DNA of 33,508 bases. Origin: Candidatus Omnitrophota bacterium (lineage in GTDB: Bacteria > Omnitrophota > Gorgyraeia > Gygaellales > Profunditerraquicolaceae). Of the stretch, positions 8,748-33,508 are shown piece by piece. The notes under the pieces are model-generated. The model had not been told where the DNA came from and searched no databases. It worked only from the letters and a program-made list of their open reading frames with translations. Every line of letters starts with the position of its first letter. Position 1 is the first letter of the stretch. Location of the stretch: the NCBI GenBank assembly GCA_029563245.1, contig JAKQSG010000009.1, forward strand, positions 1-33,508, given 5' to 3'. The translations under genes were made by a program, and so were the position numbers.

Positions 8748-9803
8748 ATGAAAGGGTATTTTTATAGTATAGTAACAGACAGGCAGAAAGGGGCCTTGGC
8801 GGAATTGATAAAGCCTTTCCTTTTTATTCTCTCCCTGATTTACGGTATTATCATACGCGTTTTAATCTCCTGTTCTTCTTTTGATCAAAAGCGTTTTAAT
8901 TTAAGGATAATCAGTGTAGGTAATATTACCGTAGGCGGCACAGGTAAGACCTCCCTGGTTGAATTAATTTCCAGGTATCTTAAGGGACGTGGTAATTCCC
9001 TGGCCATTCTTACTCGCGGGTATAAGCGTAAAGGTCTTGACTACGCAGGAGATGAACCCAGGATGCTTGCTAAGAATCTGGAAGATACCCCGGTTATTAT
9101 TGACAAAAATAGAGCCCGTTCGGCAAGAAGGGCTGTAAGGGAATATAATTGTGATACAGCTATATTAGATGACGGTTTCCAGCAATGGCACATAAAGAAA
9201 GATTTAGATATAGTGGTGATCGATTCCCTTAACCCTTTTGGCAACAGGCATATGCTGCCGCGAGGTTTATTGCGTGAACCTTTAAGTTCCCTGAAGAGAG
9301 GGGATATTTTTGTCTTGAGCAAAACTAATTTTGTCAGCAGGGGGGATTTAGATAAAATCAGGCTTTCTTTGGTTAAATATAACCCCAGGGGATTAATCGT
9401 TGAATCTATCCACAAACCGGTCGGTTTTTATAATATAAAAGAGCCGGGTAAATTACTCAGCTTAGTCTGCCTTAAGAAAGAGAAAGTTGTCCTTTTGTCT
9501 GGCATTGGCGACCCAGTATCTTTTCTAAAGACGATCTCCGGCCTAGGGGTGGGGGTAGGGTTGGAATTGGTTTTTTCCGACCATCATTATTATACCGTTA
9601 GGGAGATAGAGGTAATTGCCGATAGGGCTAGAAGGAGCGGTTTAAAATTTATTGTTACTACGGAAAAAGATGCGGCAAGGATTTCTGAAGAGGCCATATC
9701 TATCCTGGGAGATCTTGAGATTCTTATCTTACGCATAGAATTGAAGATCGTAAAGAATGAAGAACCCTTTTTTAATCGATTACTTGGGCTGTATTCTCTT
9801 TAA
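8748..9803 (+). CDS. lpxK: Tetraacyldisaccharide 4'-kinase
   Basis: ISVGNITVGGTGKT, LTRGY, GDEP, LDDGFQ, LPRGLLREP, FSDHH and TTEKD motifs. Confidence 0.95.
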   Translation: MKGYFYSIVTDRQKGALAELIKPFLFILSLIYGIIIRVLISCSSFDQKRFNLRIISVGNITVGGTGKTSLVELISRYLKGRGNSLAILTRGYKRKGLDYAGDEPRMLAKNLEDTPVIIDKNRARSARRAVREYNCDTAILDDGFQQWHIKKDLDIVVIDSLNPFGNRHMLPRGLLREPLSSLKRGDIFVLSKTNFVSRGDLDKIRLSLVKYNPRGLIVESIHKPVGFYNIKEPGKLLSLVCLKKEKVVLLSGIGDPVSFLKTISGLGVGVGLELVFSDHHYYTVREIEVIADRARRSGLKFIVTTEKDAARISEEAISILGDLEILILRIELKIVKNEEPFFNRLLGLYSL

Positions 9804-11664
9804 GGTATTTGGTCCGTTTCTCAGGGCAATGCCTTTAAATTTAAGCTTCTTTTTAGGGAGGCGTCTAGGCGATTTCTTCTATTATTTTGATTCTAAACAT
9901 AAGGCAATAGCATATGCCAATATTAAGAAGGTTTTTGGTTCTATCGCTTCTCCTGCCGGGCTCTCCCGTTTGACGCGAGATTTTTACCAATCTTTCGGGC
10001 AAAGTATCATCGAGGTATTTTTAATCCCCTTAATCGACCAAGATTACATAGATAAGTATATTACTATTGAAGGCAAGGAGAGGGTATTAGAGGCTTTTAA
10101 GAAGAAAAAAGGGGTAATACTTGTTTCTGTCCATGCCGGTAGCTGGGAGCTGGCCAATATTATCAGTTCTAATCTTGGTTTCCCTTTTTCTATGTTTATA
10201 AGACAGCAGGGTTTGCCCAGGCTTAATAAGCTGCTTAATGGCTATCGTAAGCAGAGGGGCTGCCGTATTATAAGCCGCGAAGGAGGCCTGAAAGAGGCTA
10301 TCGAGGCCTTGAATAATAACGAGGCAATTGGCATGACCGTTGACCAGGGCGGGAGTACAGGTTTATTAATTGATTTCTTTGGGTTTCCAGCCTCTATCCC
10401 TAAGGGAGCAGTGAAGCTGGCCTTAAGGCATAAGGCTGTTTTAATCCCCATATTTTTTGCGCGTATTAACGGGCCTAAAATCAAGGTTTGGTCAGGCGAA
10501 GAGATCTCATTATCGGGAAGCCAGGATGAAAGCGTTGATATAAGGAGTATTTTGCGTAAGGCCATCGCTATATTCGAAAACTTTATTTTTAATAATCCGA
10601 AAGAATACCTGTGGACTTATAAAATATGGAAACATTCAAATAAAAAAAAGATACTCATCTTAAACGACGGCAGGACAGGGCATTTGCGCCAGTCAGAGGC
10701 AGTAGCAAGGTTAGCGCAGGAGGTATTATCCAGGCAAGATATAGAATCAGAAGTTGAAATGGTAGAAGTAAGCTTTAAGAATAACTTTCGCAGAATTTTG
10801 TTAAATTTATTCCCTGTTTCTCTTGAAAAATCGCTTTCTCCCGATTCATTTAATAAAGTCTTTGGCATTTCCGCGGATATAATTATATCCGCCGGCTCTT
10901 CTCTCTCTGGTGTAAATTTTCTTCTTTCGCGGGATAATTTGAGCAAATCGATTGTTGTTATGCGCCCCGCTCTTTTAGGCCTAAATAAATTTAACCTTGT
11001 GATTGTCCCCCGTCATGACCTTCCGGCAAGAGGCAAGAATGTGGTTGTTACAGATGCTGCGCTTAATTTAATTGATGAAGAATCCATTGGTTTAGAGTCA
11101 AAGAAACTTTCCGCTAGTAAGGGTTTAAATAAAGGTCGCCTTTATATGGCAGTGCTAGTCGGAGGTAATAGTAAGCGCTTTAACCTCTCTCCAGTCTTAA
11201 TTCTCAGGCTTATGGAAGAATTAAAGTCCTTGAGCCGTAGTTTAAATGCTGATATCCTTCTTACTACCTCAAGGCGTACCCCCAAAGAGGCGGAAGAAAT
11301 TATTAAGAGGGAGCTAAAAGGTTTTGATGCCGTGAAACTAATGGTTATTGCCAATGAGGCAAATATTCCGGAGGCGGTAGGCGGCATGTTGGGCTTAAGC
11401 GATATTATTATTTCTACCCCCGAGAGCATCTCTATGATTTCAGAGGCAGTAAGCAGTAGGAAATATGTATTTGTTTTTAATGCCCCGGGATTAAGCTTAA
11501 AACATGAGCGTTTTTTGAAATATCTTGCGGAAAGAAAATATATCTATAGGGATGAAATTGGCAATCTGGGTAATATGATTAAAGGCGTTTGGGCGGCTAA
11601 GCCTGTTTTACCTTCTCTAAGGGATAGCCAGTTGGTTAGCCAGGCCTTAAATAAAATATTGTAG
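9757..11664 (+). CDS. Lipid A late acyltransferase (LpxL/HtrB family) fused to an ELM1/GtrOC1-like GT-B domain
   Basis: N-terminal ~290 aa has HAGSWE, VDQ, FFG and P.EYLW.YK.WK. C-terminal ~340 aa has NDGRTGHLRQS, LVGG, TTSRRTP and TPESISMISEA (ELM1 family pattern). Confidence 0.8.
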   Translation: MKNPFLIDYLGCILFKVFGPFLRAMPLNLSFFLGRRLGDFFYYFDSKHKAIAYANIKKVFGSIASPAGLSRLTRDFYQSFGQSIIEVFLIPLIDQDYIDKYITIEGKERVLEAFKKKKGVILVSVHAGSWELANIISSNLGFPFSMFIRQQGLPRLNKLLNGYRKQRGCRIISREGGLKEAIEALNNNEAIGMTVDQGGSTGLLIDFFGFPASIPKGAVKLALRHKAVLIPIFFARINGPKIKVWSGEEISLSGSQDESVDIRSILRKAIAIFENFIFNNPKEYLWTYKIWKHSNKKKILILNDGRTGHLRQSEAVARLAQEVLSRQDIESEVEMVEVSFKNNFRRILLNLFPVSLEKSLSPDSFNKVFGISADIIISAGSSLSGVNFLLSRDNLSKSIVVMRPALLGLNKFNLVIVPRHDLPARGKNVVVTDAALNLIDEESIGLESKKLSASKGLNKGRLYMAVLVGGNSKRFNLSPVLILRLMEELKSLSRSLNADILLTTSRRTPKEAEEIIKRELKGFDAVKLMVIANEANIPEAVGGMLGLSDIIISTPESISMISEAVSSRKYVFVFNAPGLSLKHERFLKYLAERKYIYRDEIGNLGNMIKGVWAAKPVLPSLRDSQLVSQALNKIL

Positions 11665-11682: not shown

Positions 11683-13770
11683 TTGAATATACTTCAAATT
11701 CTACCGGAATTAAATGTTGGGGGGGTTGAAACTGGCACTTTAGATTTAGCCAGGCACCTTATCCGCCTAAATCATAAAGCGGTTGTAGTATCTGCCGGAG
11801 GGGTTTTGGTTAAAGACTTGGAGGAGTCCGGCGCCAAGCATTACCAGCTTTCGGTTAATAAGAAGTCGATATTATCAATGGCCAGGCTAGTCCCGCTTCT
11901 GCTCGATATTATTAAAAAAGAAAATATAGATATAGTGCATGCGCGCTCAAGGGTCCCTGCCTGGATAGCTTATTTTGCCTGTCGAAAAAGCCGGGCTATA
12001 TTTATTACTACCTGCCACGGTTATTATACAAAACATCCATTTAGTTATGTGATGGGATGGGGGAAGAGGGTGATTGTATTAAGCAATATTATAGCCCGTC
12101 ACATGATAGAAGATTTTTCTGTTCCTCACGAGAGGATACGTTTAATCCCGCGTAGCGTGGATCTGGATAAGTTTAAATATTTAAGCCCTGATAAAAAAAG
12201 AGGGAGAGAGTTTAATGTAGGGATTATCGGGAGGATAACTCCTCTTAAGGGGCACCTCTACTTTGTTAAGGCGATGGCAAAGGTTGCCAGGGCGATACCC
12301 TATCTAAAGATTTGGATTGTTGGGGATGCTTCTGCATCCCGCCAGGCATATAAAGAAGAAATACAGGTCTTGGTAAAAAGGCTTGGGTTGACCCATTGCA
12401 CCGAGTTTTTAGGTACGCAAAAAAATATCCCTGAAATTCTCTCTCATTTAGACCTCCTGGTTTTGGCTACTACTACCCATGAAGCATTCGGCAGGGTAAT
12501 TATTGAGGCCCAGGCAGCGGGAGTCCCGGTTGTGGCTACAGAAGTAGGCGGAGTCGTAGATATTATCGAAAATAATAAAAACGGGCTTCTTGTCCCTCCT
12601 GCTGACCCTGATACTATGGCTGAAGCAGCCATAAGGATATTCAAAGATCCTCAACTGGCTCTTTCTTTGTCCCAAGCAGCTATAGACACGGTAAAGGAGA
12701 AGTACAATATCTCTCTGATGGTTGAGAATACACTTAAGGTTTATGAGGAGGCTTCCAGTAAATTCAGCCTTTTAATTATCAAATTAAGTTCCCTGGGAGA
12801 TATTATCTTGTCTACCCCAGCCTTAAGGGAGATACGAAGAAAATTCCCCCATCATAAAATCAGTTTATTAGTGGGGGAAGAGTCTAAAGACTTGCTCTTT
12901 AAATGTCCGTATATAGACGAGCTACTGGTAGCGGATTTTAAAAACAGGGACAAAGGTCTAAGTGGGCTCTTGGGTATCGCTAGGGGGTTAAGAAGGAAGG
13001 GCTTTGATTTGGTTATTGATCTTCAGAATAACCGTATAAGCCACATACTTTCTTTTCTCTCCCTAAGCCTCAATAGGTATGGTTATGATAATAAGAAGCT
13101 GGGTTTTTTGCTTAACCACCGGATTAAAGATAATAAACCAAAGATAGGCCCGATTGAACATCAGTTTAAGGTGCTTAAACTTTTAGGGATAGACTTAAAG
13201 GATAACCGCTTGGAGCTATGGCCCTCAAAAAGCGACGAGGAGTATGTAGAAAAACTATTAAATACCCAATGGTTAAGCCAGGAACAGATAATTATCGGGA
13301 TAAATATCAGTGCAAGCAAGCGGTGGGCCACTAAATGTTGGCCTAAGGAATACATAGTTAAGCTTTGCGATGAGCTGGGTTTAAGGAATATGCGGGTGGT
13401 AATGACCGGTACCGAAGATGACCTGCCCGCGGCAAGTATGCTTGTCAATACTGCCAAAAATACCAAGATAATTAATGCCTGCGGTAAGACTACTATTAAT
13501 CAGTTGGCTGCTTTAATTAAGCGCTGCGCAGTCTTTATATCTGCTGATTCTTCGCCATTGCATATTGCTGCTGCGGTAAATACTCCGGTAATCGCATTTT
13601 TCGGTCCGACGGATCCGTTAAGGCATATGCCTCCGGCTAAAGATTATGTTCTTATCCGCAAGGAATTATCCTGCAGCCCTTGTTATAAGGCAAAATGTAA
13701 ACATGGTAAATGTATGAATTCAATAACCGTAGAAGAGGTTATTCGGGGAATAGAGAAGCTTTTAAAATGA
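11683..13770 (+). CDS. GT4 glycosyltransferase fused to a GT9 heptosyltransferase (WaaF-like)
   Basis: N half: GGVE, HARSR, TCHG, EAFGRVIIE (EX7E). C half: IIKLSSLGDIIL, DLQ, ADSSPLHIAAA, FFGPT and a Cys4 tail. TTG start preceded by SD AAGGAG. Confidence 0.88.
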   Translation: MNILQILPELNVGGVETGTLDLARHLIRLNHKAVVVSAGGVLVKDLEESGAKHYQLSVNKKSILSMARLVPLLLDIIKKENIDIVHARSRVPAWIAYFACRKSRAIFITTCHGYYTKHPFSYVMGWGKRVIVLSNIIARHMIEDFSVPHERIRLIPRSVDLDKFKYLSPDKKRGREFNVGIIGRITPLKGHLYFVKAMAKVARAIPYLKIWIVGDASASRQAYKEEIQVLVKRLGLTHCTEFLGTQKNIPEILSHLDLLVLATTTHEAFGRVIIEAQAAGVPVVATEVGGVVDIIENNKNGLLVPPADPDTMAEAAIRIFKDPQLALSLSQAAIDTVKEKYNISLMVENTLKVYEEASSKFSLLIIKLSSLGDIILSTPALREIRRKFPHHKISLLVGEESKDLLFKCPYIDELLVADFKNRDKGLSGLLGIARGLRRKGFDLVIDLQNNRISHILSFLSLSLNRYGYDNKKLGFLLNHRIKDNKPKIGPIEHQFKVLKLLGIDLKDNRLELWPSKSDEEYVEKLLNTQWLSQEQIIIGINISASKRWATKCWPKEYIVKLCDELGLRNMRVVMTGTEDDLPAASMLVNTAKNTKIINACGKTTINQLAALIKRCAVFISADSSPLHIAAAVNTPVIAFFGPTDPLRHMPPAKDYVLIRKELSCSPCYKAKCKHGKCMNSITVEEVIRGIEKLLK

Positions 13771-20859: not shown

Positions 20860-21393
20860 ATGGAAGACAACAAAAAAATAAAAGAATTTGCGAGTAAGAT
20901 AAAATTGCTGCTTTTGGATGTTGACGGAGTGCTTACCGACGGGCGTATCATTTATGACTCCCGGGGCAGGGATTCTAAGTTTTTCGATGTGCACGACGGG
21001 CTGGGGGTATATCTCTTAAGCAAGGCAGGGGTAAAGACTGTCCTTATCACTGCCAAGAGTTCCGCTACTATTAAGCCTCGGGCAAGGGATATGCGTGTGG
21101 AAGAGGTCTTTGGCGATGTCTCACCTAAAAGCGCTATACTGGGCAAGCTTCTTAAGAAGTATAACGTCAGCGAAGAAGAGGTTTGTTTTGTCGGGGATGA
21201 TCTTGTAGACCTAGGCTTAATGAGGCTGGTTGGGTTTGGAGTTGCCGTGGTCAATGCCTGTTCGGAGATAAAAAACGCAGCTTCTTATGTAACTATAAAA
21301 CATGGCGGTCGGGGGGCAGTAAGAGAGATAGCGGAATTGATTCTTAAGTCCCAAGGGAAGTGGGATGCCATTATAAGGAATTATGAATTATAA
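20860..21393 (+). CDS. kdsC: Kdo 8-phosphate phosphatase
   Basis: LDVDGVLTDG, F.VHDG.G, GDDLVD and GGRGAVRE. Confidence 0.95.
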   Translation: MEDNKKIKEFASKIKLLLLDVDGVLTDGRIIYDSRGRDSKFFDVHDGLGVYLLSKAGVKTVLITAKSSATIKPRARDMRVEEVFGDVSPKSAILGKLLKKYNVSEEEVCFVGDDLVDLGLMRLVGFGVAVVNACSEIKNAASYVTIKHGGRGAVREIAELILKSQGKWDAIIRNYEL

Positions 21394-22279
21394 AAGTATA
21401 TATCTACTTTTATTTTTGTGTTTTTTCTTTCCCTCTTTTGTATTTGCGAATGTTATTCCTGATCAATCCGCTCAGCAGATAAGTGATTTTTCTTTAGTGG
21501 GCTATGAGGAAAAAGGCAAAAAGAGCTGGGATATATCCGGGCGTTCAGCGGATATCTTTACGGAGGTGGTTAAGCTAAAAGACGTAAACGGGAATTTATA
21601 CGGCAAAGATGAAGACGTTAACCTTACCGCTAAAAAAGGTGATTTTAATAAGGAGGACGGCAAGGTTTCCTTAAAAGAGGATGTGGTTATTACTACATCT
21701 CAAGGCGCAAGGCTTACTACTGATTCCATGGATTGGGACAGGAAGAATCAGGTGGTTACAACTAAGGATAGGGTTAACATAGATAAGGATAATATAAATA
21801 TCGTAGGAATCGGGGCGCATGGGGAGCCGGGGTTAAACAGGATGGCTTTAAATAAAGATGTACGTGTTGACATTAATCCGCTTGGCCCCGAGGATAGTAT
21901 TGATGATTTAGTGATTAAGGACAGGGTCATAATAACCTGCGACGGGCCGATGGAGGTGGATTACGCCAAGAATATCGCCTCTTTTAATATTAATGTCAGG
22001 GTGGAAAGGCCAGATATCATTATCTATAGCGATAAGATGGATATTTATTTTACAGCCCAAGATAAAGGTTCTAAGTCTATTAAGACGGCCGAATCAATGG
22101 CCGGGAGTATAGACAGGATCGTAGCCAGTGGTAACGTGAGGATAGTGCGCGGGGACAATGTCTCCTACAGTCAGGAGGCTGTATATACTGCGCAGGATAA
22201 GAGGATTGTCTTGAACGGCCGTCCAAAATTAGTTTTTTATTCTATGGAAGAGTTTAAAAATGCATCTTTTGGAGATTAA
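21383..22279 (+). CDS. lptC: LPS export protein, LptC-like domain fused to an LptA/OstA-like domain
   Basis: N-terminal hydrophobic helix. LptC-like segment (W.I.G..A, LTA.KG, V.L..DV.IT, L.TDS..W). Second jellyroll (IITCD..MEVD, NV.V, I.SD.M.IY, I.ASGNV.I, A.Y, I.L.G.P). Lies between kdsC and lptB. Confidence 0.75.
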
Positions 22280-23006: not shown

Positions 23007-23885
23007 ATGAAAACGGAAGTAAAAAGGATCGATAATAACACAAGGGAGATTAATGTTGAGGTGAGCGGGGAGGTAGTCAAGAATAAGTTTGAAGAAGTCT
23101 TTAAGCGGATATCTTCAGAGGCTAAGGTTCCGGGGTTTAGGCCCGGGCATGCACCCAGGGATATCCTTGAAAAACAGTTTGGTGCCGCGGCCCATGAACA
23201 GGTCTTAAAAGAATTAATTCCGGATATTTATAATCAGGCGGTAAATAACGAGAAGCTTGATGTTATTGAGTTGCCACAGATATCAGAGGTAAAGCTCGAT
23301 AATGATACCCTCTCTTTTAAAGCCAAGGTAGAGATAAGCCCGGAGATTGATATTAAAGATTACAGGAACATTCCCCTCAACTACAAGAATGTAAGCGTTG
23401 CAGAAGATGAGGTGAAACGCAGCATAGATTCTTTTAAGGAATCGCGTAAGCTGGATAAATTAGATGATAGTCTGGCTAGATCATTGGGGTATCCTTCTTT
23501 AGCGGAGTTAGAGAAGGTATTAGAGAAACAGATTTTTCTCCAAAAGGAGAATAACCAGAGGCAAAAACTTGAAAGCGAGATTATCGATAATCTGCTGAAG
23601 GGGCTGGATTTTAAATTGCCCCAATCCTTAGTGAAGCGTCAATCGGAGGATATGCTTCGTCAGGCTAAGATTGATTTAGCCTTAAAAGGCGTCCCTCGCG
23701 AAAAGATAGACGCGCAGGAAAGCAAGATGCGCGAAGAATTAGAGCCTGAGGCAAGAAATCAGGTTAAGGTATACCTAGTTTTATCAGCAATAGCCAAGAA
23801 AGAGGCTATCACACTCGATGACCATATGCCGCGTAAGGTTATGGAGTTTTTGCTAAGGGAGGCCAATTGGAAGATAACAGATTAG
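23007..23885 (+). CDS. tig: Trigger factor lacking the FKBP PPIase domain
   Basis: Ribosome-binding signature PGFRPGHAP and C-domain LDD.LA..LG..SL.EL, P.SLV, IA.KE.I. Only 292 aa; directly upstream of clpP. Confidence 0.85.
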
Positions 23886-24548: not shown

Positions 24549-25688
24549 ATGAGAAAGAACTATCTTTTAACGCCGGGGCCTACACCTCTCCCTCCTGAAG
24601 TCTTAGAGGCAATGAGCAGGCCTATTATTCACCACCGCACCCCGCAATTTCAGGCAATATTAAAAGAGGCTACCCAGGGCTTGCAGTATGTATATCAGAC
24701 CAAGAATGACGTTTTTATTTTAGCTTCTTCCGGGACCGGGGCAATGGAGGCTGCGGTGGTTAATCTTTTATCCTGCAAAGATACGGCCTTGGTTATAGAG
24801 GGAGGTAAATTCGGAGAAAGATGGACGGAGATCTGCAAGGCCTACGGAATAAATACTGAAGTTATTTCCGTAGAGTGGGGCAGGGCGGTAAATCCTTTAG
24901 ATATCCAGGAGAAGATTAAGAATAACCCTGCGATTAAAGTCGTTTTTACTACGCTTTGCGAAACATCCACCGGCGTAGTCAATGATATCGCTGCGATAGG
25001 GAAGATAATTAAAGATACAAACGCGGTCTTGGCAGTAGATGCCATAAGCGGTTTAGGGGCTATTGATTTAAAGACCGATGATTGGTTCTGCGATATTGTA
25101 GTATCTGGTTCTCAGAAGGGTTTAATGTTGCCTCCGGGTCTAGGATTTATTTCCGTAAGCCCTAAGGCCTTTAAGTTCATCGATTCTTCCAACGCACCCA
25201 GGTATTATCTAGACTTGAAGAAGGCCAAAAAAGCTTTAGACAAAACTGACACGCCGTTTACTCCGGCAATCACTCTTATCATTGCCTTAAATGAGGTGCT
25301 TAAGATGATGAAAGAGGATGGCCTGGAGAATATTTTTGCCAGGCATAGAAAGATGGCAGATGCGGTTAGAAACGCAGTTTTAGCTTTAGGGCTTAAATTA
25401 TTCGCACCTGAGGCAGGCTCGGATGTGGTGACCGCGATTTGCCTGCCCGAAGGGCTGGACGGAGAGAAGTTAGTTAAGACCATGCGTGATACTTATGGTG
25501 TTACTATTGCCGGAGGCCAGGACTCGCTTAAGGGCAAGGTTTGTAGGATTGCGCATATGGGTTTTATCGAGGAGTTTGATATTATTACCGGCATATCTTG
25601 CTTAGAGAAAGTATTAACGCAGATGGGTTATAAATTTACCCTGGGATCAGGGGTAAAGGCCGCAGAAGAGACTTTTTTAAAAAAATAA
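24549..25688 (+). CDS. Class V PLP aminotransferase (AGT/serine-pyruvate family; probable phosphoserine aminotransferase)
   Basis: TPGPT, SGTGAMEA, ETSTGV, VDAIS, GSQKG (PLP lysine) and RIAHMG. Directly upstream of serA. Confidence 0.88.
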   Translation: MRKNYLLTPGPTPLPPEVLEAMSRPIIHHRTPQFQAILKEATQGLQYVYQTKNDVFILASSGTGAMEAAVVNLLSCKDTALVIEGGKFGERWTEICKAYGINTEVISVEWGRAVNPLDIQEKIKNNPAIKVVFTTLCETSTGVVNDIAAIGKIIKDTNAVLAVDAISGLGAIDLKTDDWFCDIVVSGSQKGLMLPPGLGFISVSPKAFKFIDSSNAPRYYLDLKKAKKALDKTDTPFTPAITLIIALNEVLKMMKEDGLENIFARHRKMADAVRNAVLALGLKLFAPEAGSDVVTAICLPEGLDGEKLVKTMRDTYGVTIAGGQDSLKGKVCRIAHMGFIEEFDIITGISCLEKVLTQMGYKFTLGSGVKAAEETFLKK

Positions 25689-25702
25689 CAGGAGGGTTTT
25701 AG

Positions 25703-27289
25703 ATGTTTAAGATCTTGGTAAGCGATGCGCTTTCTGAAGAAGGCCTAAAAATATTAAAAGAGGTGAAGGAATTTGAGGTTGATGTAAAGACCGGCCTTGC
25801 CCCCGAAGAGTTGAAAAGTATCATCAAAGATTATGATGCGCTTTTAGTTAGAAGTGCTACAAAGGCAAATAAGGATCTTATTAATGCCGCTTCCAGGCTT
25901 AAGGTTATAGGCCGCGCAGGTGTAGGCCTCGATAATGTTGACCTTGATGCAGCTACCTCCAAAGGGATAATTGTTATGAATACTCCGGGAGGCAATACTA
26001 TATCGACCGCTGAACACGCAGTAAGTATGATTCTATCTCTTTCCAGGAGTATCCCGCAGGCAAACGCATCTACTAAGAAAGGCGAGTGGAAACGCTCTAA
26101 ATTCATGGGAGTGGAACTTTATGCTAAGGTTTTAGGGATAATCGGTTTTGGCAGAATAGGTAAAGAAGTGGCAAGGCGTGCCCTTTCTTTCGGTATGCGG
26201 GTATTAGCCTATGACCCCTTTTTATCTAAGAATGTAGCGGAAGCTTTGGGGGTTGAAGTAGTAGAACTTAAGGAATTATTCCAACAGTCCGATTATATTA
26301 CGGTGCATACGCCTATGACCGAAGAGACCAATCATTTGATCTCAACCGAAGAATTTGCTTTGATGAAAAAAGGTGTGCGTATTATTAACTGCGCAAGGGG
26401 GGGCATCATTGATGAAAAGGCCTTAGTTGCAGCTGTTAGCCAGGGTAAGGTTGCCGGAGCGGCTTTAGACGTATTTGAGAAAGAGCCTATCTCCCCTGAC
26501 CATGAGCTTTTGAAATTTGACAATGTTATAGTAACCCCTCATCTGGGGGCCTCAACTGAAGAGGCCCAGGTAAATGTGGCTATAGAAGTAGCCGAGATTG
26601 TGCGGGATGCCTTATTAGGGAAAGGAATCCGTAATGCCGCAAATTATCCTTGCCTGGAAGCTGAGGTTTGCAAGAAATTGGATCCCTATATTAATTTAAC
26701 CGAGAAATTAGGCGGTTTTGCGGGGCAGCTGGTAGAGGGGGGATTTAAAGAGCTTGATATAAGTTATAGCGGAGAGATCGCTGCTTATGATTTAAGCCCT
26801 TTGACTATGTCTTTATGCAAGGGATTGCTCTCTCCTATATTAAAAGAGAACATAAATTTCATTAATGCCGTATCTATAGCCAAGGATAGAGGAATTAAAA
26901 TTAAGGAGGCTAAGACTTCTAAGGAAGATGAGTTTGTTAATCTTATACAGCTTGAGATAAAGACTGATAAGGAGACTAGGGTAGTATCGGGCACTTTATC
27001 CGGTAATAAGCAGCCCAGGATTGTTAAGATTGATGAATATTACATAGAGCTTGCCCCTTCGCAGGAGATGATCTATATTGAAAACTGGGATAAGCGCGGG
27101 CTGATCGGAAACTTAGGAACATTTCTGGCTAAAGAGGGTATAAACATAGCCGCTATGACCATAGGGCGCGATAAACCAGGCGGTAAGGCAATCAGCGTTT
27201 GGAATGTGGATAGCCCGGTTTCATTGGAGCTAACCCAGAAGATAAAGAAACTTGAGAATATACTGACTGCCAAGGGCATAAAAATATAA
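25703..27289 (+). CDS. serA: D-3-phosphoglycerate dehydrogenase (long type with ASB and ACT domains)
   Basis: VRSATK, RAGVGLDNVD, GFGRIG, NCARGG, LDVF and TPHLGAST; 528 aa. Confidence 0.96.
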   Translation: MFKILVSDALSEEGLKILKEVKEFEVDVKTGLAPEELKSIIKDYDALLVRSATKANKDLINAASRLKVIGRAGVGLDNVDLDAATSKGIIVMNTPGGNTISTAEHAVSMILSLSRSIPQANASTKKGEWKRSKFMGVELYAKVLGIIGFGRIGKEVARRALSFGMRVLAYDPFLSKNVAEALGVEVVELKELFQQSDYITVHTPMTEETNHLISTEEFALMKKGVRIINCARGGIIDEKALVAAVSQGKVAGAALDVFEKEPISPDHELLKFDNVIVTPHLGASTEEAQVNVAIEVAEIVRDALLGKGIRNAANYPCLEAEVCKKLDPYINLTEKLGGFAGQLVEGGFKELDISYSGEIAAYDLSPLTMSLCKGLLSPILKENINFINAVSIAKDRGIKIKEAKTSKEDEFVNLIQLEIKTDKETRVVSGTLSGNKQPRIVKIDEYYIELAPSQEMIYIENWDKRGLIGNLGTFLAKEGINIAAMTIGRDKPGGKAISVWNVDSPVSLELTQKIKKLENILTAKGIKI

Positions 27290-27300
27290 AGAGAGAGGAT

Positions 27301-29034
27301 ATGAGTAAAAAAATACCAATTCTACTTCTGGCCGTAATTTCCATATTTTTAGTCGGCGAAGCTGCTTTTGCTCAAGAGATCACCTTGCTTTATACCGGCC
27401 AAACACACGCTATGCTCTATCCCTGCGATTGTCCGGTTGAGGCTGATGGCGGCGTAGCCAGGAGGGCGGCTTTAATTAAGCAGTTAAGAAAAAGCAATCC
27501 TAACACATTGCTTTTGGATTCCGGTAATTATTTCGCCGGCGGATTATTGGATCAGGTTACGCAGAATACCCAATTAGATATGCAAAGGACCATTGTTAAC
27601 TTGCGCGCGATGGAGCTAATGCAATATGATGCATTAAATCTCAGTAATGATGAATTTAATTTTGGGGAAAGGTTCTTTGAGGATAGCGCAGCCAAACTTA
27701 AGTTGAATTTTGTATCTTCGAACATTCAATCCGAGAGGATATCCTACTATATAATTAAGGAAATAGCAGGGATAAAGATAGGTATCGTTGGTTTGGCTAA
27801 CCATAAGGCTAAGGAAAAGTTATCTGTCTTAAGTTTTTCAGAGCCTCTTGCGGCTTTGAAAGATTCGGTAGCAAAGCTTAAGGAGAGAGGCGTAGATATT
27901 GTTATCCTCTTAAGCAATATAGGTTCGGAAGAATGCCAGAGGTTGGTTAAGGAGGTGCCTGGTATTGATTTGGTTTTAGAGGGAGGCGGTTCTTTTAAGG
28001 AGGACATTTCGTATAAGAAAGGCGAGACGATATTCTTAAGGCCCGTATGGCAGGCGCGTAAGCTTGGCAAGGCGGTCTTAAAGATTAAGAATAAAAAGAT
28101 AGTTGATTCAAAGACAGAAGAGATCAGGGTTTCTGATAAAATAACCGATGACCCACAGGTACTTTCAATATTGCCCCGCTGTTTTTCTGATAATAACTGC
28201 AAGAAAGACGGCCTTGTCGGTTCCTGCCTGGATGCTGGCAGCGATAGTTCCCGCTGCATTTTTAGCGAGGCAGCTAAAGTAAGGTTAACAGTGGTTACTT
28301 CTAAGGATTGCGCCGTTTGTAATACTGAGGTTGCGGTTAATTCACTCAGGCAAAAATTACCCGGTTTAGAGGTAGCAAGCCTTTATCACCCTGAGAAAAA
28401 TGCGCTAGCCCTCGTAGAAAAATTGGGTATATCAGGTCTTCCGGCCTATGTTTTAGATAAGGGGATAGAGAAGGCGCAGGCTTTCGATAGCTTAAGGGAC
28501 AGCCTTAATAAGATCGGTGATTACTATGTTTTGAAACCCGAGGTTGCAGGAGTAGCATATCTTTTAGATCGGGAACGTTTTAAGGGTAGGTTAGACGTAT
28601 TTATAAGCTTATACGATAAAGATTCTTTTGAGGTTTTAGGGTTAGTAGGCGATTTTAACCCTAAAATACATTTTCTTGCCATTGCCTTGGATGATGGGTT
28701 TGACGCCCCTAAGGGGATGATGGAGGTTGAAGAAATATTGCGCTGTGTATGCGTGAATAAATATTACCCCGAGCTTTTCTTTGATTATATATCCTGCAGG
28801 GCAAAAAATATTAATAGTTCATGGTGGGAGGATTGTGCAAAGGGTTTAGATACGGATAAGATTAGAGAATGCGCCAGGCAAGGAGAGGGGGGTTCTTTAC
28901 TCAGGGAGAATATCCAGCTAAGTAAGGAGCTAAAGATTATGTTTGGTCCCGTCTATCTGCTGGATAACAAAGAAATCTTTGGCTCTAAGGGTGTTCCTAA
29001 AAAGGAAGATTTCAAGAAAATAATAAAGAGGTGA
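27301..29034 (+). CDS. Secreted multidomain protein: degenerate UshA/5'-nucleotidase-like N-domain, Cys-rich module, thioredoxin-like (CAVC) and GILT/DsbA-like domains
   Basis: Signal peptide ending AFA; LYPCDC...GGVARR; LLLDSGN; SNDEF; four-Cys segment; CAVC; C-terminal G..EVEE.LR..C..KYYP..F.DY..CR pattern. Confidence 0.6.
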   Translation: MSKKIPILLLAVISIFLVGEAAFAQEITLLYTGQTHAMLYPCDCPVEADGGVARRAALIKQLRKSNPNTLLLDSGNYFAGGLLDQVTQNTQLDMQRTIVNLRAMELMQYDALNLSNDEFNFGERFFEDSAAKLKLNFVSSNIQSERISYYIIKEIAGIKIGIVGLANHKAKEKLSVLSFSEPLAALKDSVAKLKERGVDIVILLSNIGSEECQRLVKEVPGIDLVLEGGGSFKEDISYKKGETIFLRPVWQARKLGKAVLKIKNKKIVDSKTEEIRVSDKITDDPQVLSILPRCFSDNNCKKDGLVGSCLDAGSDSSRCIFSEAAKVRLTVVTSKDCAVCNTEVAVNSLRQKLPGLEVASLYHPEKNALALVEKLGISGLPAYVLDKGIEKAQAFDSLRDSLNKIGDYYVLKPEVAGVAYLLDRERFKGRLDVFISLYDKDSFEVLGLVGDFNPKIHFLAIALDDGFDAPKGMMEVEEILRCVCVNKYYPELFFDYISCRAKNINSSWWEDCAKGLDTDKIRECARQGEGGSLLRENIQLSKELKIMFGPVYLLDNKEIFGSKGVPKKEDFKKIIKR

Positions 29035-29037
29035 GAG

Positions 29038-30276
29038 ATGAATAAGAAACCAAAGATATCGTTAATTGATGTAACTAACCGTGACGGAGTGCAGACTTCG
29101 CGGATATGCCTCTCCAAGCTCCAAAAGACTATGCTTAATCTTTACCTGGATGAAATGGGGGTATTTCAGTCGGAGTTTGGCTTTCCATTAACGCGCCACG
29201 AAACTAATTATCTTAATGCAAATTTAGATCTGGTTAAAAAAGGGGTCATTGCTTCTATCAGGCTGGGAGGCTGGCTAAGGGCGACCAGCGATGATGTTAA
29301 GAAGGCATTTAAGCTAATTCCCAATTTAAAACATCTTAATCTATCAATATCTACATCAGATCAGATGATCGTAAATAAATTTAAAGGAAAGCTGGATCAT
29401 GCTTCGGTAATAAAGGAAATGACTGAGGCGGTTCATGAAGCCCGTAGCCTGGGCGCCAATTCAATAGGGGTTAATGCCGAGGACGCTTCGCGTACAAAGA
29501 TTGACTATCTGATTGAGTTTGCTCAAAACGCAAAGAAGGCCGGGGCAGAAAGAATTCGTTATTGCGATACATTAGGCTATGACACGCCATTTAGCATTTA
29601 CGAGAGGATAAAAACTTTAGCCGAATCAGTAAAGATCCCGATAGAGATACACTGTCATAATGATTTGGGGTTGGTGGTGGCTAATTCTATCGCCGGTGCT
29701 CGCGCAGCTAATGATGCCGGGGTAGATACCTATATTAATACTTGCGTAAACGGTATGGGGGAGCGCGCGGGCAATGCGGATTTAGTTTCGGTTATCCTGG
29801 CGATAAAGTACGGTAGCGGGATGGAGGGGTATGTCCTTGATGAAAAGATTGACCTAAAGAAGTCTTGGAAGGTATGCAAGTATGCCTCCTATGCTTTCGG
29901 GGTGCCCATACCGATAAATCAACCGGGGATTGGGGCTAATGCCTTTGCGCATGAGTCAGGTATTCATGCTGACGGCGCCTTAAAGGATAGGCGTAATTAC
30001 GAACTCTATGATTTCGAAGAGCTTGGCAGGGGGGAACCGGAGATTATTGAGACCGGGCGTAAGATTACCGCCGGTGAATACTCGGGGATTAAGGGCTTCA
30101 GGAATGTTTACGAGAAGATAGAGGTTGCTTTTGCTAGCGATGCTGAGGCTACTCAAGTGTTGGAATTGGTCAGGTATGCCAATGTGCATAACCAGAAGCC
30201 TTTGGTTGATGACGAGCTTAAATTTATCGCCAAATACCCCGATATCGCACGTAAAATATTTACCATGACGCCGTAA
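29038..30276 (+). CDS. DRE-TIM metallolyase (homocitrate synthase/LeuA family); probable Re-citrate synthase
   Basis: DVTNRDGVQT, AEDASRT, YCDTLG, HCHNDLG, GMGERAGNA and HESGIHADG. No LeuA regulatory domain. Confidence 0.8.
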   Translation: MNKKPKISLIDVTNRDGVQTSRICLSKLQKTMLNLYLDEMGVFQSEFGFPLTRHETNYLNANLDLVKKGVIASIRLGGWLRATSDDVKKAFKLIPNLKHLNLSISTSDQMIVNKFKGKLDHASVIKEMTEAVHEARSLGANSIGVNAEDASRTKIDYLIEFAQNAKKAGAERIRYCDTLGYDTPFSIYERIKTLAESVKIPIEIHCHNDLGLVVANSIAGARAANDAGVDTYINTCVNGMGERAGNADLVSVILAIKYGSGMEGYVLDEKIDLKKSWKVCKYASYAFGVPIPINQPGIGANAFAHESGIHADGALKDRRNYELYDFEELGRGEPEIIETGRKITAGEYSGIKGFRNVYEKIEVAFASDAEATQVLELVRYANVHNQKPLVDDELKFIAKYPDIARKIFTMTP

Positions 30277-30329
30277 ATTTATAAACAAGGCAGCATAAGA
30301 ATGCAAACAAAATGAAAAGGGTAAAATAA

Positions 30330-31625
<1,296 letters not shown>

Positions 31626-31656
31626 TAACTTTCAAAAGAAGAAGGAGAGGTATAAT

Positions 31657-32283
31657 ATGAAAAACTATTTAAAGATCTTATTGGTGTTTGTGGTAAGCTG
31701 TGCTTTAACCGGATGTACTTTTATTATCCAGAAAGGTAAAAGATCGGATGCCTTAAAGATTGAAGAGCTTTCTAATCAATTAGATGAGTTATCCCAGGCG
31801 AAAAAGCTTTTGGAAGAGAGATTAGGTAAGGAGATATCCGATAAGCAGATTAAGCTGCAGATGATGGAGAAGGGGCTGGTTATTACGGTAGTCGGGGATC
31901 TTTTGTTTGATTCGGGAAAAGCGCAAATAAGACAAGAGGCTTATTCTTTGTTGGATAAGGTTTCTAGGGTCTTAAAAGATAATATGGGTAGCTTTAATAT
32001 AGGCATAGAAGGCTATACGGACAACGTTGCGATAAAGCATTCCAGCTGGAAGTCTAACTGGGAACTATCTACTGCCCGTTCTTTAAGCGTTTTACATTTC
32101 TTAGTTAATGAAAAAGGTATTTCTCCAGAGCGTCTCTCAGCGATTGGTTTTGGCGAATACCGACCGGTTGCCACTAATGATACAAGAGAGGGCAGGAAAT
32201 TAAACCGCCGGGTTGAAATTGTTATACAGCCAAAGATATCCAAGGTAAAAGATGGCGGCAGCCTCGGGGAGAATCTAAAATAA
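31657..32283 (+). CDS. OmpA/MotB-family peptidoglycan-binding lipoprotein
   Basis: Signal peptide with lipobox LTGC, a short coiled coil, then LLFDSGKA, IEGYTD, NWELSTARS, G.GEYRPVA.N and NRRVEI. True start is ATG 31657, not 31504. Confidence 0.88.
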   Translation: MKNYLKILLVFVVSCALTGCTFIIQKGKRSDALKIEELSNQLDELSQAKKLLEERLGKEISDKQIKLQMMEKGLVITVVGDLLFDSGKAQIRQEAYSLLDKVSRVLKDNMGSFNIGIEGYTDNVAIKHSSWKSNWELSTARSLSVLHFLVNEKGISPERLSAIGFGEYRPVATNDTREGRKLNRRVEIVIQPKISKVKDGGSLGENLK

Positions 32284-32724: not shown

Positions 32725-32749
32725 AAAGGGGATGGATTTCCCCTTTTTT
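32725..32749 (+). terminator. Rho-independent terminator
   Basis: AAAGGGGA-TGGATT-TCCCCTTT stem-loop ending in a T6 run. Confidence 0.75.
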
Positions 32750-32773
32750 ATTGCCAAGAAAGCGGAGGGATAT

Positions 32774-33508
32774 ATGGCTAAAATAAAGAAGGTTAAGCCG
32801 AAAACAAAGTCTAAAATAAAATTAAAGAAGTCAATGCCTAAGGCCAAATCAGCTAGTAAGATTAAGAAGGTAAGGCATGCTAAGGCTAGCCTTGTGCCTA
32901 AGGAGAAAAAGGATGATTTAAGCAAGCAGGAAGTAGTTATAGGCGCGGTAAAGTTTTCGCATGCCAAGTCAATGCTTATGCAGGATTATTCTCAGCGCGA
33001 GTTACCTTCCAGGTATGGCAGGGATATGATGGTTTTAGCAGTAAGGGACCCCTGGTGGCTGTATACTTATTGGGAAGTTAAAGATTCTACCTGGAATAAA
33101 TTCAGGGAAGAACTTAGGGAAGAATTCAACAAGGCTAAGAGGGTGTTGCGTGTTTATGATGTCAGCAGTATTCTCTTTAACGGTTTTAACGCAAATAAAT
33201 TCTTCGATATAGAGGTGCGCGAAGATGCCTTAAGCTGGTATATAGATATTGCCGTCCCGGGTAGGTCTTGGTGCGTAGACTTCGGGCTTCTATTGGCCGA
33301 CGGAAGGTTCATTACCATATTACGTTCTAATGTTGTGGAGACGCCTCTTGACGGTCCTTCTTGGATTACGGATGAAGAATGGATGGTACCGGAGGAGATG
33401 TTTATGCGTCTTTACGGAATGGGGTTTGGTTTGGGGAAGACTTCTCCGGCGGGAGGGGTTTGGCGTAAGGGCGCTGTAAGTTCTCCGGGTATTGCTTCAA
33501 TGGCAAGC
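32774..33508 (+). CDS. DUF4912 domain protein with Lys-rich N-terminus, 3'-truncated by the window edge (absent from the ORF track)
   Basis: SD GGAGG then ATG 32774. Reads MAKIKKVKPKTKSKIKLKK...ELPSRYGRDMMVLAVRDPWWLYTYWEV...LRVYDV...WYI...RSNVVETP and stays open to the window end. Confidence 0.85.
   Translation, partial: MAKIKKVKPKTKSKIKLKKSMPKAKSASKIKKVRHAKASLVPKEKKDDLSKQEVVIGAVKFSHAKSMLMQDYSQRELPSRYGRDMMVLAVRDPWWLYTYWEVKDSTWNKFREELREEFNKAKRVLRVYDVSSILFNGFNANKFFDIEVREDALSWYIDIAVPGRSWCVDFGLLLADGRFITILRSNVVETPLDGPSWITDEEWMVPEEMFMRLYGMGFGLGKTSPAGGVWRKGAVSSPGIASMAS

Follow-up and report, generated by a model that had tools for sequence, protein, structure and literature searches.

The gene at positions 27301..29034 (+ strand, ATG start) of a 33,508-nucleotide (nt) stretch of Candidatus Omnitrophota DNA, which was analysed as a whole and is called the window here, encodes a protein of 577 amino acids (aa). 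Judged from sequence and structure comparison, this is a real, strongly conserved and uncharacterised exported protein, most probably a redox protein and not a nucleotidase. Instead of cleaving nucleotides, it is likely to take part in a membrane-fed thiol relay of the envelope that has not been described so far. The observations behind this are the fold of its domains, the loss of a metal site, the conservation of its cysteines and a set of fusion, adjacency and co-occurrence links to a membrane domain (called M in the following) and to DUF1573 proteins.

Domain anatomy, lost metal site and fixed cysteines

The protein is composed of the following parts:

27301..27372, + strand: signal peptide (residues 1-24; AFA precedes the likely cleavage site), read from the translation
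27373..28170, + strand: degenerate 5'-nucleotidase N-domain (metallophosphoesterase fold), residues 25-290, assigned by profile and structure matches
27424..27432, + strand: CxC pair C42-D43-C44 (PCDCP), codons TGC GAT TGT, on the loop just past the former DxH motif
28171..28278, + strand: four-Cys module C294/C300/C309/C319 (Cys at 28180-28257), modelled as a beta-hairpin mini-domain
28279..28572, + strand: small thioredoxin/glutaredoxin-like domain, residues 327-424, with CAVC at 28309-28320 and the cis-Pro P381 at 28441-28443
28573..29034, + strand: GILT/DsbA-like thioredoxin-fold domain with a helical insert, residues 425-577 and stop codon, assigned by structure comparison

The N-terminus, MSKKIPILLLAVISIFLVGEAAFA followed by QE, reads by eye as a Sec-type signal peptide, and A24 is invariant in 25 aligned sequences. 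A signal peptide had already been part of the original prediction, which was made from the letters of the window alone and whose coordinates and motifs all check out. For the N-domain, a PDB profile search yields a match to 2z1a (E 1.7e-25), and the structure comparison gives the same protein with Z 30.3 and a root-mean-square deviation (rmsd) of 2.8 over 268 aligned residues; SoxB (2wdd, Z 28.6) and the SoxB-SoxYZ complex (4uwq, Z 28.1) are also close. No Pfam or NCBIfam family passes its cut-off for the protein, and thus there is no full-length match to a characterised family. The NCBIfam matches comprise NF041198 UshA_like_PCGU (128.7 bits with a cut-off of 275, E 2.3e-37, profile positions 14-281 of 519), SoxB (73.1 bits, E 1.4e-20) and NF049981 (68.3 bits, E 6.8e-19). 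The substrate-binding domain 5_nucleotid_C (PF02872) gives no match to the protein at E values up to 1; residues 291-577 fold instead as the four-Cys module and the thioredoxin-like and GILT/DsbA-like domains.

The model of residues 285-577 (87 sequences) has a predicted local distance difference test score (pLDDT) of 96.1 and a predicted template modelling score (pTM) of 0.87. Within this model, residues 327-424 show a middling match to 2k8s, a small thioredoxin-like protein (Z 7.2 over 72 aligned residues). The CAVC motif, which had been called thioredoxin-like from the beginning, is followed by a helix at 343-352 in the model of the full-length protein. A Pfam match of residues 327-401 to CoA_binding_2 (21.4 bits, below the cut-off) was rejected as spurious, the stretch being the thioredoxin-like domain. 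Residues 425-577 are most similar to mouse GILT (6nwx_B; Z 16.0, rmsd 3.1, 147 residues aligned), followed by DsbA of S. aureus (Z 14.6) and then many Dsb/Scs proteins, with a Foldseek E value of 7.4e-07. This confirms the proposed GILT/DsbA-like segment without CxxC, although the Pfam DSBA score is only 18.5 (cut-off 25.6) and Pfam GILT does not match the protein. In place of the CxxC stands SLYDKD, Cys is not among the commonest residues at positions 436-441 (87 sequences), and the helical insert holds C484, C499, C512 and C524. The protein has no CXXCH motif.

The window protein was aligned with homologues from 80 GTDB species loci, and the positions of the metal and catalytic motifs were assigned from the hidden Markov model (HMM) alignment to 2z1a. 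In this tally, the Asp of DxH is kept in 10/80 loci, that of GD in 2/80 and the Asn of GNHE in 6/80. The His of SH is kept in 13/80 and that of GH in 30/80. The catalytic dyad is gone completely: the His of GNHE is kept in 0/80 (Asp in 80/80) and its partner Asp likewise in 0/80 (Asn in 80/80). The sole tallied metal or catalytic residue that is retained is H36, the His of DxH (79/80). The acidic residues D73, D84, D110, D117 and E118 are also conserved over the 80 loci. The altered dimetal motifs described from the single sequence are confirmed by this tally, and the site is not intact.

The cysteines behave in the opposite way, and their conservation across the 80 loci is far beyond chance. 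C42, C44, C294, C300, C309, C319 and C337 are each found in 80/80, C340 and P381 (the cis-Pro position) in 79/80, C484, C499 and C512 in 77/80 each and C524 in 76/80. The misses at the last four positions are mostly gaps (2-3 per column), apart from one locus with Ser at C484 and one with Val at C524. In the wider family of 87 sequences, the Cys of the four-Cys module are present in 81/87 each, with mostly gaps in the rest, and P381, D432 and N556 are present in 87/87 each. The CxC pair, the four-Cys module and the CAVC motif thus all stood up to the comparison with homologues, and the poor Cys conservation that would have spoken against a role of these residues did not occur. Both CxC cysteines are encoded by TGC or TGT throughout the 77 loci whose codons were read, and the remaining three loci also read CxC. 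An in-frame TGA at this place, as it occurs in selenoprotein genes, had been suggested as a thing to look for; however, no in-frame stop was found in any family-profile match or in any NF041198 match in 151 genomes of the phylum.

Relatives, membrane domain M and DUF1573

A word-index search, in which 8000 candidates were scored, gave 482 proteins at E ≤ 0.001. Among these matches, the top 120 are 567-618 aa long and 51-100% identical, and all belong to Omnitrophota where an organism is given. The exhaustive search of representative sequences resulted in 8379 proteins at E ≤ 0.001, 2228 at ≤ 1e-10 and 260 at ≤ 1e-30. As other phyla with relatives, the Atlas names Fibrobacterota, Verrucomicrobiota and Nitrospinota. 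Among the 151 sampled genomes of the phylum, 27 have a match to the family profile at E ≤ 1e-10, with 13 full-length proteins besides that of the window. One match among these 27 genomes (G018) turned out to be a true 5'-nucleotidase of the same phylum by its intact motifs (NDIHGH, DSGD).

The gene lies between serA and a synthase gene, and what is found in this slot varies across the class. It can be a full-length protein with CxC (G103) or with CGHC (G059), only the part with the four-Cys, thioredoxin-like and GILT-like domains (G079, G141, G091) or only the thioredoxin-like and GILT-like domains (G135). Two congeners, each 95% complete, have no family match, and their serA and synthase genes are separated by only 13 nt (G097) and 11 nt (G075). 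This clean absence indicates that the gene is dispensable there.

The motif on the N-domain loop differs between relatives: it is CxC in the own clade and CxxC (such as CGHC or CGRC) in more distantly related proteins, which are about 580 aa long, and it is sometimes absent. In a survey of 86 relatives, 58 have both the N-domain pair and the thioredoxin CxxC, and nine are fragments or lack the N-domain. Some wider relatives also pass the Pfam GILT model (P0224, E 1.7e-21; P0256, E 4.8e-23). In the accessible selenoprotein tables, the UshA-like family NF041198 is listed with CxU and family 2, NF049981, with CxxU (PMC13188914, PMC9312934), and the GOS study lists 76 selenocysteine and 92 cysteine forms (PMC2398784). 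The same portions of these tables give no function for NF041198 or NF049981 (PMC13188914, PMC9312934, PMC2398784). UshA is not mentioned in a selenoprotein preprint (10.1101/2022.07.06.499078), and a search of the full-text literature gave no functional study of this architecture.

Other relatives carry haem. Cytochrome_C554, C7 or MtrC-like multihaem domains are present in 6 of the 20 odd-length relatives scanned. An Omnitrophota protein of 461 aa (G028), whose PCGC aligns with C42/C44, has four CXXCH motifs and a Cytochrome_C554 match, and it matches both halves of NF041198 (116.7 and 104.8 bits). Since positions 355-519 of NF041198 match the region of this protein with the four CXXCH motifs, the second half of the model can be read as a multihaem part. 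The NF041198 cut-off itself was passed by none of the matches in the 151 phylum genomes.

The membrane domain M was first found in G091 as P0271, a polytopic protein of 231 aa that is encoded between serA and the gene for a protein with four-Cys, thioredoxin-like and GILT-like domains. P0271 was the query for the searches of genomes for M, and the M family as used here has 18 aligned members, in which a GL-DG-NPCA motif is invariant and an AVCTGQ-YLP motif nearly so. In the M protein of the window genome (390 aa; G000, contig C135), six hydrophobic segments come after a signal peptide and a thioredoxin-like domain with CSRC. C159 (NPC), which is invariant, lies in the first segment and C307 (VCTGQ), present in at least 90% of the 18 sequences, at the end of the fourth. 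A thioredoxin-type Pfam match was obtained for 11/18 M proteins, and a PDB sequence search with M gave matches confined to the thioredoxin part. The Atlas holds no structure for M, but its neighbours at 0.95-0.97 include CcdA clusters, with DsbD_TM or DsbD_2 in 11-65% of their members. Relatives of M are named 'cytochrome c biogenesis protein CcdA' or 'thiol-disulfide isomerase/thioredoxin' by JGI, and there is a weak NCBIfam match to ArsG (E 4.3e-06). Taken together, M would be a CcdA-like six-helix membrane domain, whose homology to CcdA is weakly supported.

Some neighbours of M deserve a short remark. In the window genome, genes for a UbiA prenyltransferase and a Pyr_redox_2 flavoprotein are located directly upstream of the gene for thioredoxin-M (G000 C135; L096 1896-3922), and they are missing there in the congener G097. 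A role of these two as electron donor or quinone link was considered and discarded, since a close homologue of the flavoprotein adjoins M only in G095 of the five genomes searched. In G005, a DJ-1/PfpI family gene (L091 6770-7387) comes after the pair of thioredoxin-M and GILT-like genes, and in G019 an open reading frame (ORF) of 175 aa (L099 4438-4965) is found at this place.

We drew domain maps with custom HMMs, built on our own alignments of the protein family and of M. They revealed that both ends of the protein occur fused to M. The nucleotidase-like domain, here with CHC, is fused to M in G025 (709 aa, E 8e-91) and G037 (692 aa, E 8e-89), and the thioredoxin-like and GILT-like domains are fused to M in G143 (645 aa) and G031 (1113 aa). 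P0227 combines DUF1573, M, thioredoxin-like and GILT-like domains in one protein, and in P0238 the tail of M is followed by the thioredoxin-like and GILT-like domains. Adjacency tells the same story: the gene order is serA, DUF1573-M, full-length homologue and synthase in G147, and serA, M, the four-Cys-thioredoxin-GILT-like protein and purA in G091, and in G005 and G019 thioredoxin-M adjoins the GILT-like protein. In the 151 phylum genomes, the protein occurs in 27, M in 32 and both in 23. Fisher's test gives p 4e-16 by genome, where related genomes are not independent of each other, and p 6e-4 by GTDB family (11/3/5/20).

In the window genome, a 141-aa lipoprotein of the DUF1573/HYDIN-type Ig-like kind is encoded directly downstream of M, and its SCGC motif is invariant in eight genomes (the window genome and seven others of its family). 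DUF1573 is present in 24/151 genomes, and in 12 of these 24 it adjoins M or is part of the same reading frame. Within the GTDB family of the window, it was found beside M in 8/8 genomes with the protein and was not found in the two family genomes that lack the protein and keep M. In G028, the gene for a DUF1573 protein with TSCGC overlaps the gene for the PCGC-tetrahaem protein by 4 nt. A selenoprotein form of DUF1573 is listed, in the accessible part of the source, as OS_HP2 with the motif UGC (PMC9312934), and a match to the corresponding NCBIfam model NF041425 was seen.

The proposed relay and competing explanations

By analogy with DsbD, we see about an even chance that the protein is exported and carries out thiol-disulfide redox chemistry, most likely as a client or effector within a DsbD-like electron relay whose parts are split. 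The flow of electrons, its direction and the substrate are the parts of this relay that we infer. Electrons would pass from cytoplasmic thioredoxin to the Cys pair of M and on to the thioredoxin domain fused to it, and from there via the CGC of DUF1573 to the CxxC and/or the CxC of the protein and finally to the substrate. The GILT/DsbA-like domain, being without CxxC, might bind the substrate or a partner, like the non-catalytic domains of PDI, and the final reactive site would be the CxC loop above the pocket of the dead phosphoesterase. The original prediction had proposed a non-hydrolytic scaffold coupled to thiol chemistry. The lost metal site and the invariant cysteines agree with this, but a passive scaffold is unlikely: because relatives fuse the nucleotidase-like domain to the CcdA-like M or to a tetrahaem cytochrome, or carry CxU or CxxU, this domain is probably the working end.

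Several observations weigh against a relay of this kind, or at least against a purely reductive one. The membrane part of M belongs to no Pfam family in 18/18 members, and its hhalign comparison with the canonical CcdA of the window genome is weak (E 0.0096, probability 4%), even if Cys is aligned on Cys. That canonical CcdA adjoins an AhpC/TSA-type lipoprotein, and the genes for M and DUF1573 are not next to the gene studied in the window genome. M occurs without the protein in nine genomes, and relatives of the protein occur without an M match to P0271 in G079, G141 and G028; the fourth such genome is G018 with its true nucleotidase. The congeners G097 and G075 keep M in the absence of the protein, so the protein is not essential there and M would serve further clients as well, and the joint absence of the protein and DUF1573 in these two may go back to a single loss event. 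In the full-length model, the mean pLDDT is 85.4, and that of the CxC loop (residues 42-45) is below 50. The motif survey also contains nine of 86 relatives that have the N-domain pair and lack the thioredoxin CxxC, two without both and eight scored as lacking the N-domain pair, of which at least two (P0016, P0137) were misfiled by the pattern. Since either motif can be absent in distant relatives, not all members need be redox-active. Finally, eight conserved and apparently structural cysteines lie outside the two motifs. They imply that disulfides form in the envelope, which fits an oxidising as well as a reducing role.

The last point leads to the opposite direction of electron flow. The protein could be a disulfide-forming or disulfide-shuffling catalyst, i.e. 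an oxidase or isomerase, in bacteria without DsbA, DsbB and VKOR, with a strained CxC disulfide as the oxidant and the CxxC domain as a relay. Neither the window genome (73% complete) nor five genomes of its family that are 95-96% complete gave a DSBA, DsbB or VKOR family match, the eight additional cysteines would need oxidising, and oxidases and isomerases (DsbA, DsbL, ScsC) are among the best structural matches to the last domain. CxC peptides are moreover known to mimic PDI. Nevertheless, we consider this unlikely, since no electron acceptor was identified and the gene is absent from two congeners that have no DSBA-family match at the slot, and is therefore not indispensable. In addition, the linked M resembles CcdA, whose superfamily is described only as reductive in the relevant part of the literature (PMC3322552). 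Handling of thiophilic metals or metalloids (Cu(I), Zn, Hg, As) is quite unlikely too. CxC, CGC and CxxC would then be ligands and M a transporter of the LysE-superfamily type, for which the weak match of M to the arsenical permease ArsG (E 4.3e-06) and the presence of the copper-tolerance protein ScsC among the structural neighbours can be cited. However, no metal-resistance family was found in the window or among the five ORFs scanned around M in the window genome (UbiA, Pyr_redox_2, M, DUF1573 and an M48 peptidase), the selenocysteine versions of the UshA-like and DUF1573 domains, as listed in the accessible tables, point to redox catalysis, and a cis-Pro, as is typical of redox-active members, is retained in the thioredoxin-fold domain.

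The similarity to SoxB opens two further views. It is a long shot that the dead nucleotidase domain has become a new thiol/selenol enzyme, acting on sulfur or selenium species or on some other small oxidised substrate that the CGC of DUF1573 would carry. As a redox counterpart of SoxB-SoxYZ, it would obtain its electrons from whichever module the lineage has, be it the CcdA-like relay, the thioredoxin and GILT domains or multihaem cytochromes. It is very unlikely that, more narrowly, the protein acts on small sulfur or selenium species carried by the Cys of DUF1573 as SoxB does on SoxYZ, with thiol chemistry replacing the dimetal hydrolysis. The N-domain is structurally close to SoxB (2wdd, 4uwq and the NCBIfam match given above), DUF1573 and the nucleotidase-like domain are linked even where M is missing (the 4-nt overlap in G028), and both domains have selenoprotein versions in the tables as far as accessible. 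Against this, the likeness is limited to the fold and to analogy, 5'-nucleotidases are nearer to the N-domain than SoxB is, and the genomes are small (about 1-1.7 Mb). That the protein is still a phosphoesterase or nucleotidase, working by a non-canonical site, is extremely improbable. Its fold is intact (Z 30.3), and H36 and the five acidic residues are conserved; yet H36 is all that is kept of the tallied positions, the catalytic His-Asp has become Asp-Asn in 80/80 and the C-terminal substrate-binding domain of 5'-nucleotidases is absent. The true 5'-nucleotidase of G018 illustrates what an intact site looks like in this phylum.

What is known about thiol redox chemistry in the cell envelope comes almost entirely from Proteobacteria and Firmicutes (DsbA/B, DsbC/D, CcdA, ScsB/C). 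The locus and its partners suggest a further class of DsbD-superfamily relay, with a very divergent membrane core, the orphan Ig-like DUF1573 and a nucleotidase fold repurposed to hold a redox Cys pair as its proposed parts. If the membrane-fed relay is true, it would provide a pathway for two 'orphan selenoprotein' families, UshA-like and OS_HP2/DUF1573, and a clear example of a metalloenzyme scaffold that was converted to thiol chemistry. The presence/absence polymorphism within the genus offers a ready comparison for finding the substrate.

Locus, expression and known systems

The window of 33.5 kb carries housekeeping and envelope genes, all on a single strand and with a positive GC skew throughout. 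Their order is aroC, aroK, dprA, topA, an xerC-like gene, waaA, lpxK, glycosyltransferases and kdsB/A/D/C, continued by lptC/A, lptB, tig, clpP, a class-V aminotransferase gene, serA, the gene studied, the gene of an HMGL-like synthase, purA and a gene for an OmpA-like protein. The upstream neighbour is identified as serA by its 2-Hacid_dh, PGDH_inter and ACT domains, and its stop codon is at 27287-27289. The short gap that follows contains a putative ribosome-binding signal, as judged from the sequence and the ORF ends:

27290..27300, + strand: 11-nt gap with the Shine-Dalgarno-like AGAGAGAGGAT

At the other end, the stop codon TGA (29032-29034) is separated by 3 nt from the ATG of the synthase gene at 29038. 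The order clpP, aminotransferase, serA, gene studied, synthase, purA, OmpA-like is kept across the 80 loci; serA was found in 75/80 and the synthase in 76/80, and the other loci are largely cut by contig ends. Within this block, the gene studied is the least conserved one, with 46-82% identity as compared to 61-98% for the neighbours. The tight spacing that had been noted before, with gaps of 11 nt and 3 nt, is thus correct; from the gene order it appears to reflect conserved synteny, and a functional link to serA is not implied by it.

A scan for promoters and terminators in the window stayed at chance level (22 found and 19.4 expected, and 8 found and 8.6 expected, respectively). DNA of the stretch is present in metagenomes of wastewater, activated sludge and digesters (11 studies). 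Three metatranscriptome runs from two studies each contain one contig of 157-232 nt that is identical to part of 27357-27588. Nothing else within 25000-31000 was found in these three runs, and the remainder of the gene is uncovered. These short contigs from RNA libraries are at most a weak hint of transcription and not a proof. In one further run, whose RNA origin is only a guess, there are contigs spanning the junctions with both neighbouring genes.

Some other genes of the window show unusual features of their own. The HMGL-like synthase (29038-30276) stays below every NCBIfam cut-off, with nifV homocitrate synthase as the best match (275.9 vs 462.9 bits), and is 71-97% identical across loci despite these scores. 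The trigger factor (23007-23885) is only 292 aa long and consists of Trigger_N and Trigger_C; a peptidyl-prolyl isomerase domain did not match at E ≤ 1e-05. Three ORFs are fusions: an LptC-like and an LptA-like part in one ORF of 298 aa (21383-22279), a lipid A acyltransferase with an ELM1-like domain (9757-11664, 635 aa) and a GT4 glycosyltransferase with a GT9 heptosyltransferase (11683-13770, 695 aa). The listed ORF of 259 aa at 31504-32283 overlaps the end of purA, and the OmpA-like lipoprotein more likely starts from the ATG at 31654 (MKNYLKILLVF...), the part that is matched in other loci. At 32732-33508, the window ends within the gene of a DUF4912 protein whose N-terminal part is rich in Lys.

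With regard to known families, NF041198 and NF049981 share a homologous nucleotidase-like N-domain with the protein and appear to have their Cys or selenocysteine pair on the same loop, as judged from the PCGC of the NF041198-like Omnitrophota protein, which falls on C42/C44. The protein differs from NF041198 in its score below the cut-off, in having two cysteines in the pair and in its C-terminal half, where the cytochrome-type part is replaced by the four-Cys, thioredoxin-like and GILT-like domains.

A functional analogy can be drawn to DsbD, ScsB and CcdA and their clients DsbC, DsbG, CcmG and ScsC. According to the sections of the source that treat it, DsbD is composed of an Ig-like alpha, a two-Cys membrane beta and a thioredoxin-like gamma part, which may be separate polypeptides, and passes electrons from cytoplasmic thioredoxin via beta, gamma and alpha to thioredoxin-fold clients (PMC3322552). 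A two-Cys membrane domain, a thioredoxin-like domain, an Ig-like domain with a Cys pair and thioredoxin-fold clients are what we find here as well, and in both cases the parts are either fused or encoded by separate genes. However, M has no Pfam DsbD family, its thioredoxin domain stands at the N-terminus, the Ig-like part is represented by DUF1573 and its CGC, and the client has a dead nucleotidase domain. By this analogy, M, thioredoxin and DUF1573 would correspond to the parts of DsbD, arranged in another order and drawn from families that are unrelated or very divergent.

The remaining comparisons concern single domains. Residues 425-577 have the same fold as the GILT/DsbA family (GILT Z 16.0, DsbA Z 14.6), whose CxxC is absent here. 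SoxB is a dimanganese hydrolase. Its complex with SoxYZ resembles the present case in the 5'-nucleotidase-family fold of the N-domain and in the genomic link to an Ig-like protein with a reactive Cys, here DUF1573; in contrast to SoxB, the metal site has been lost and a CxC gained in the protein studied. PDI-type proteins likewise combine a catalytic thioredoxin-fold domain with CxxC and a thioredoxin-fold domain without the motif, and the CGHC on the N-domain loop of some relatives fits this picture. This likeness is one of domain make-up, and the domain order and the nucleotidase-like domain have no counterpart in PDI.

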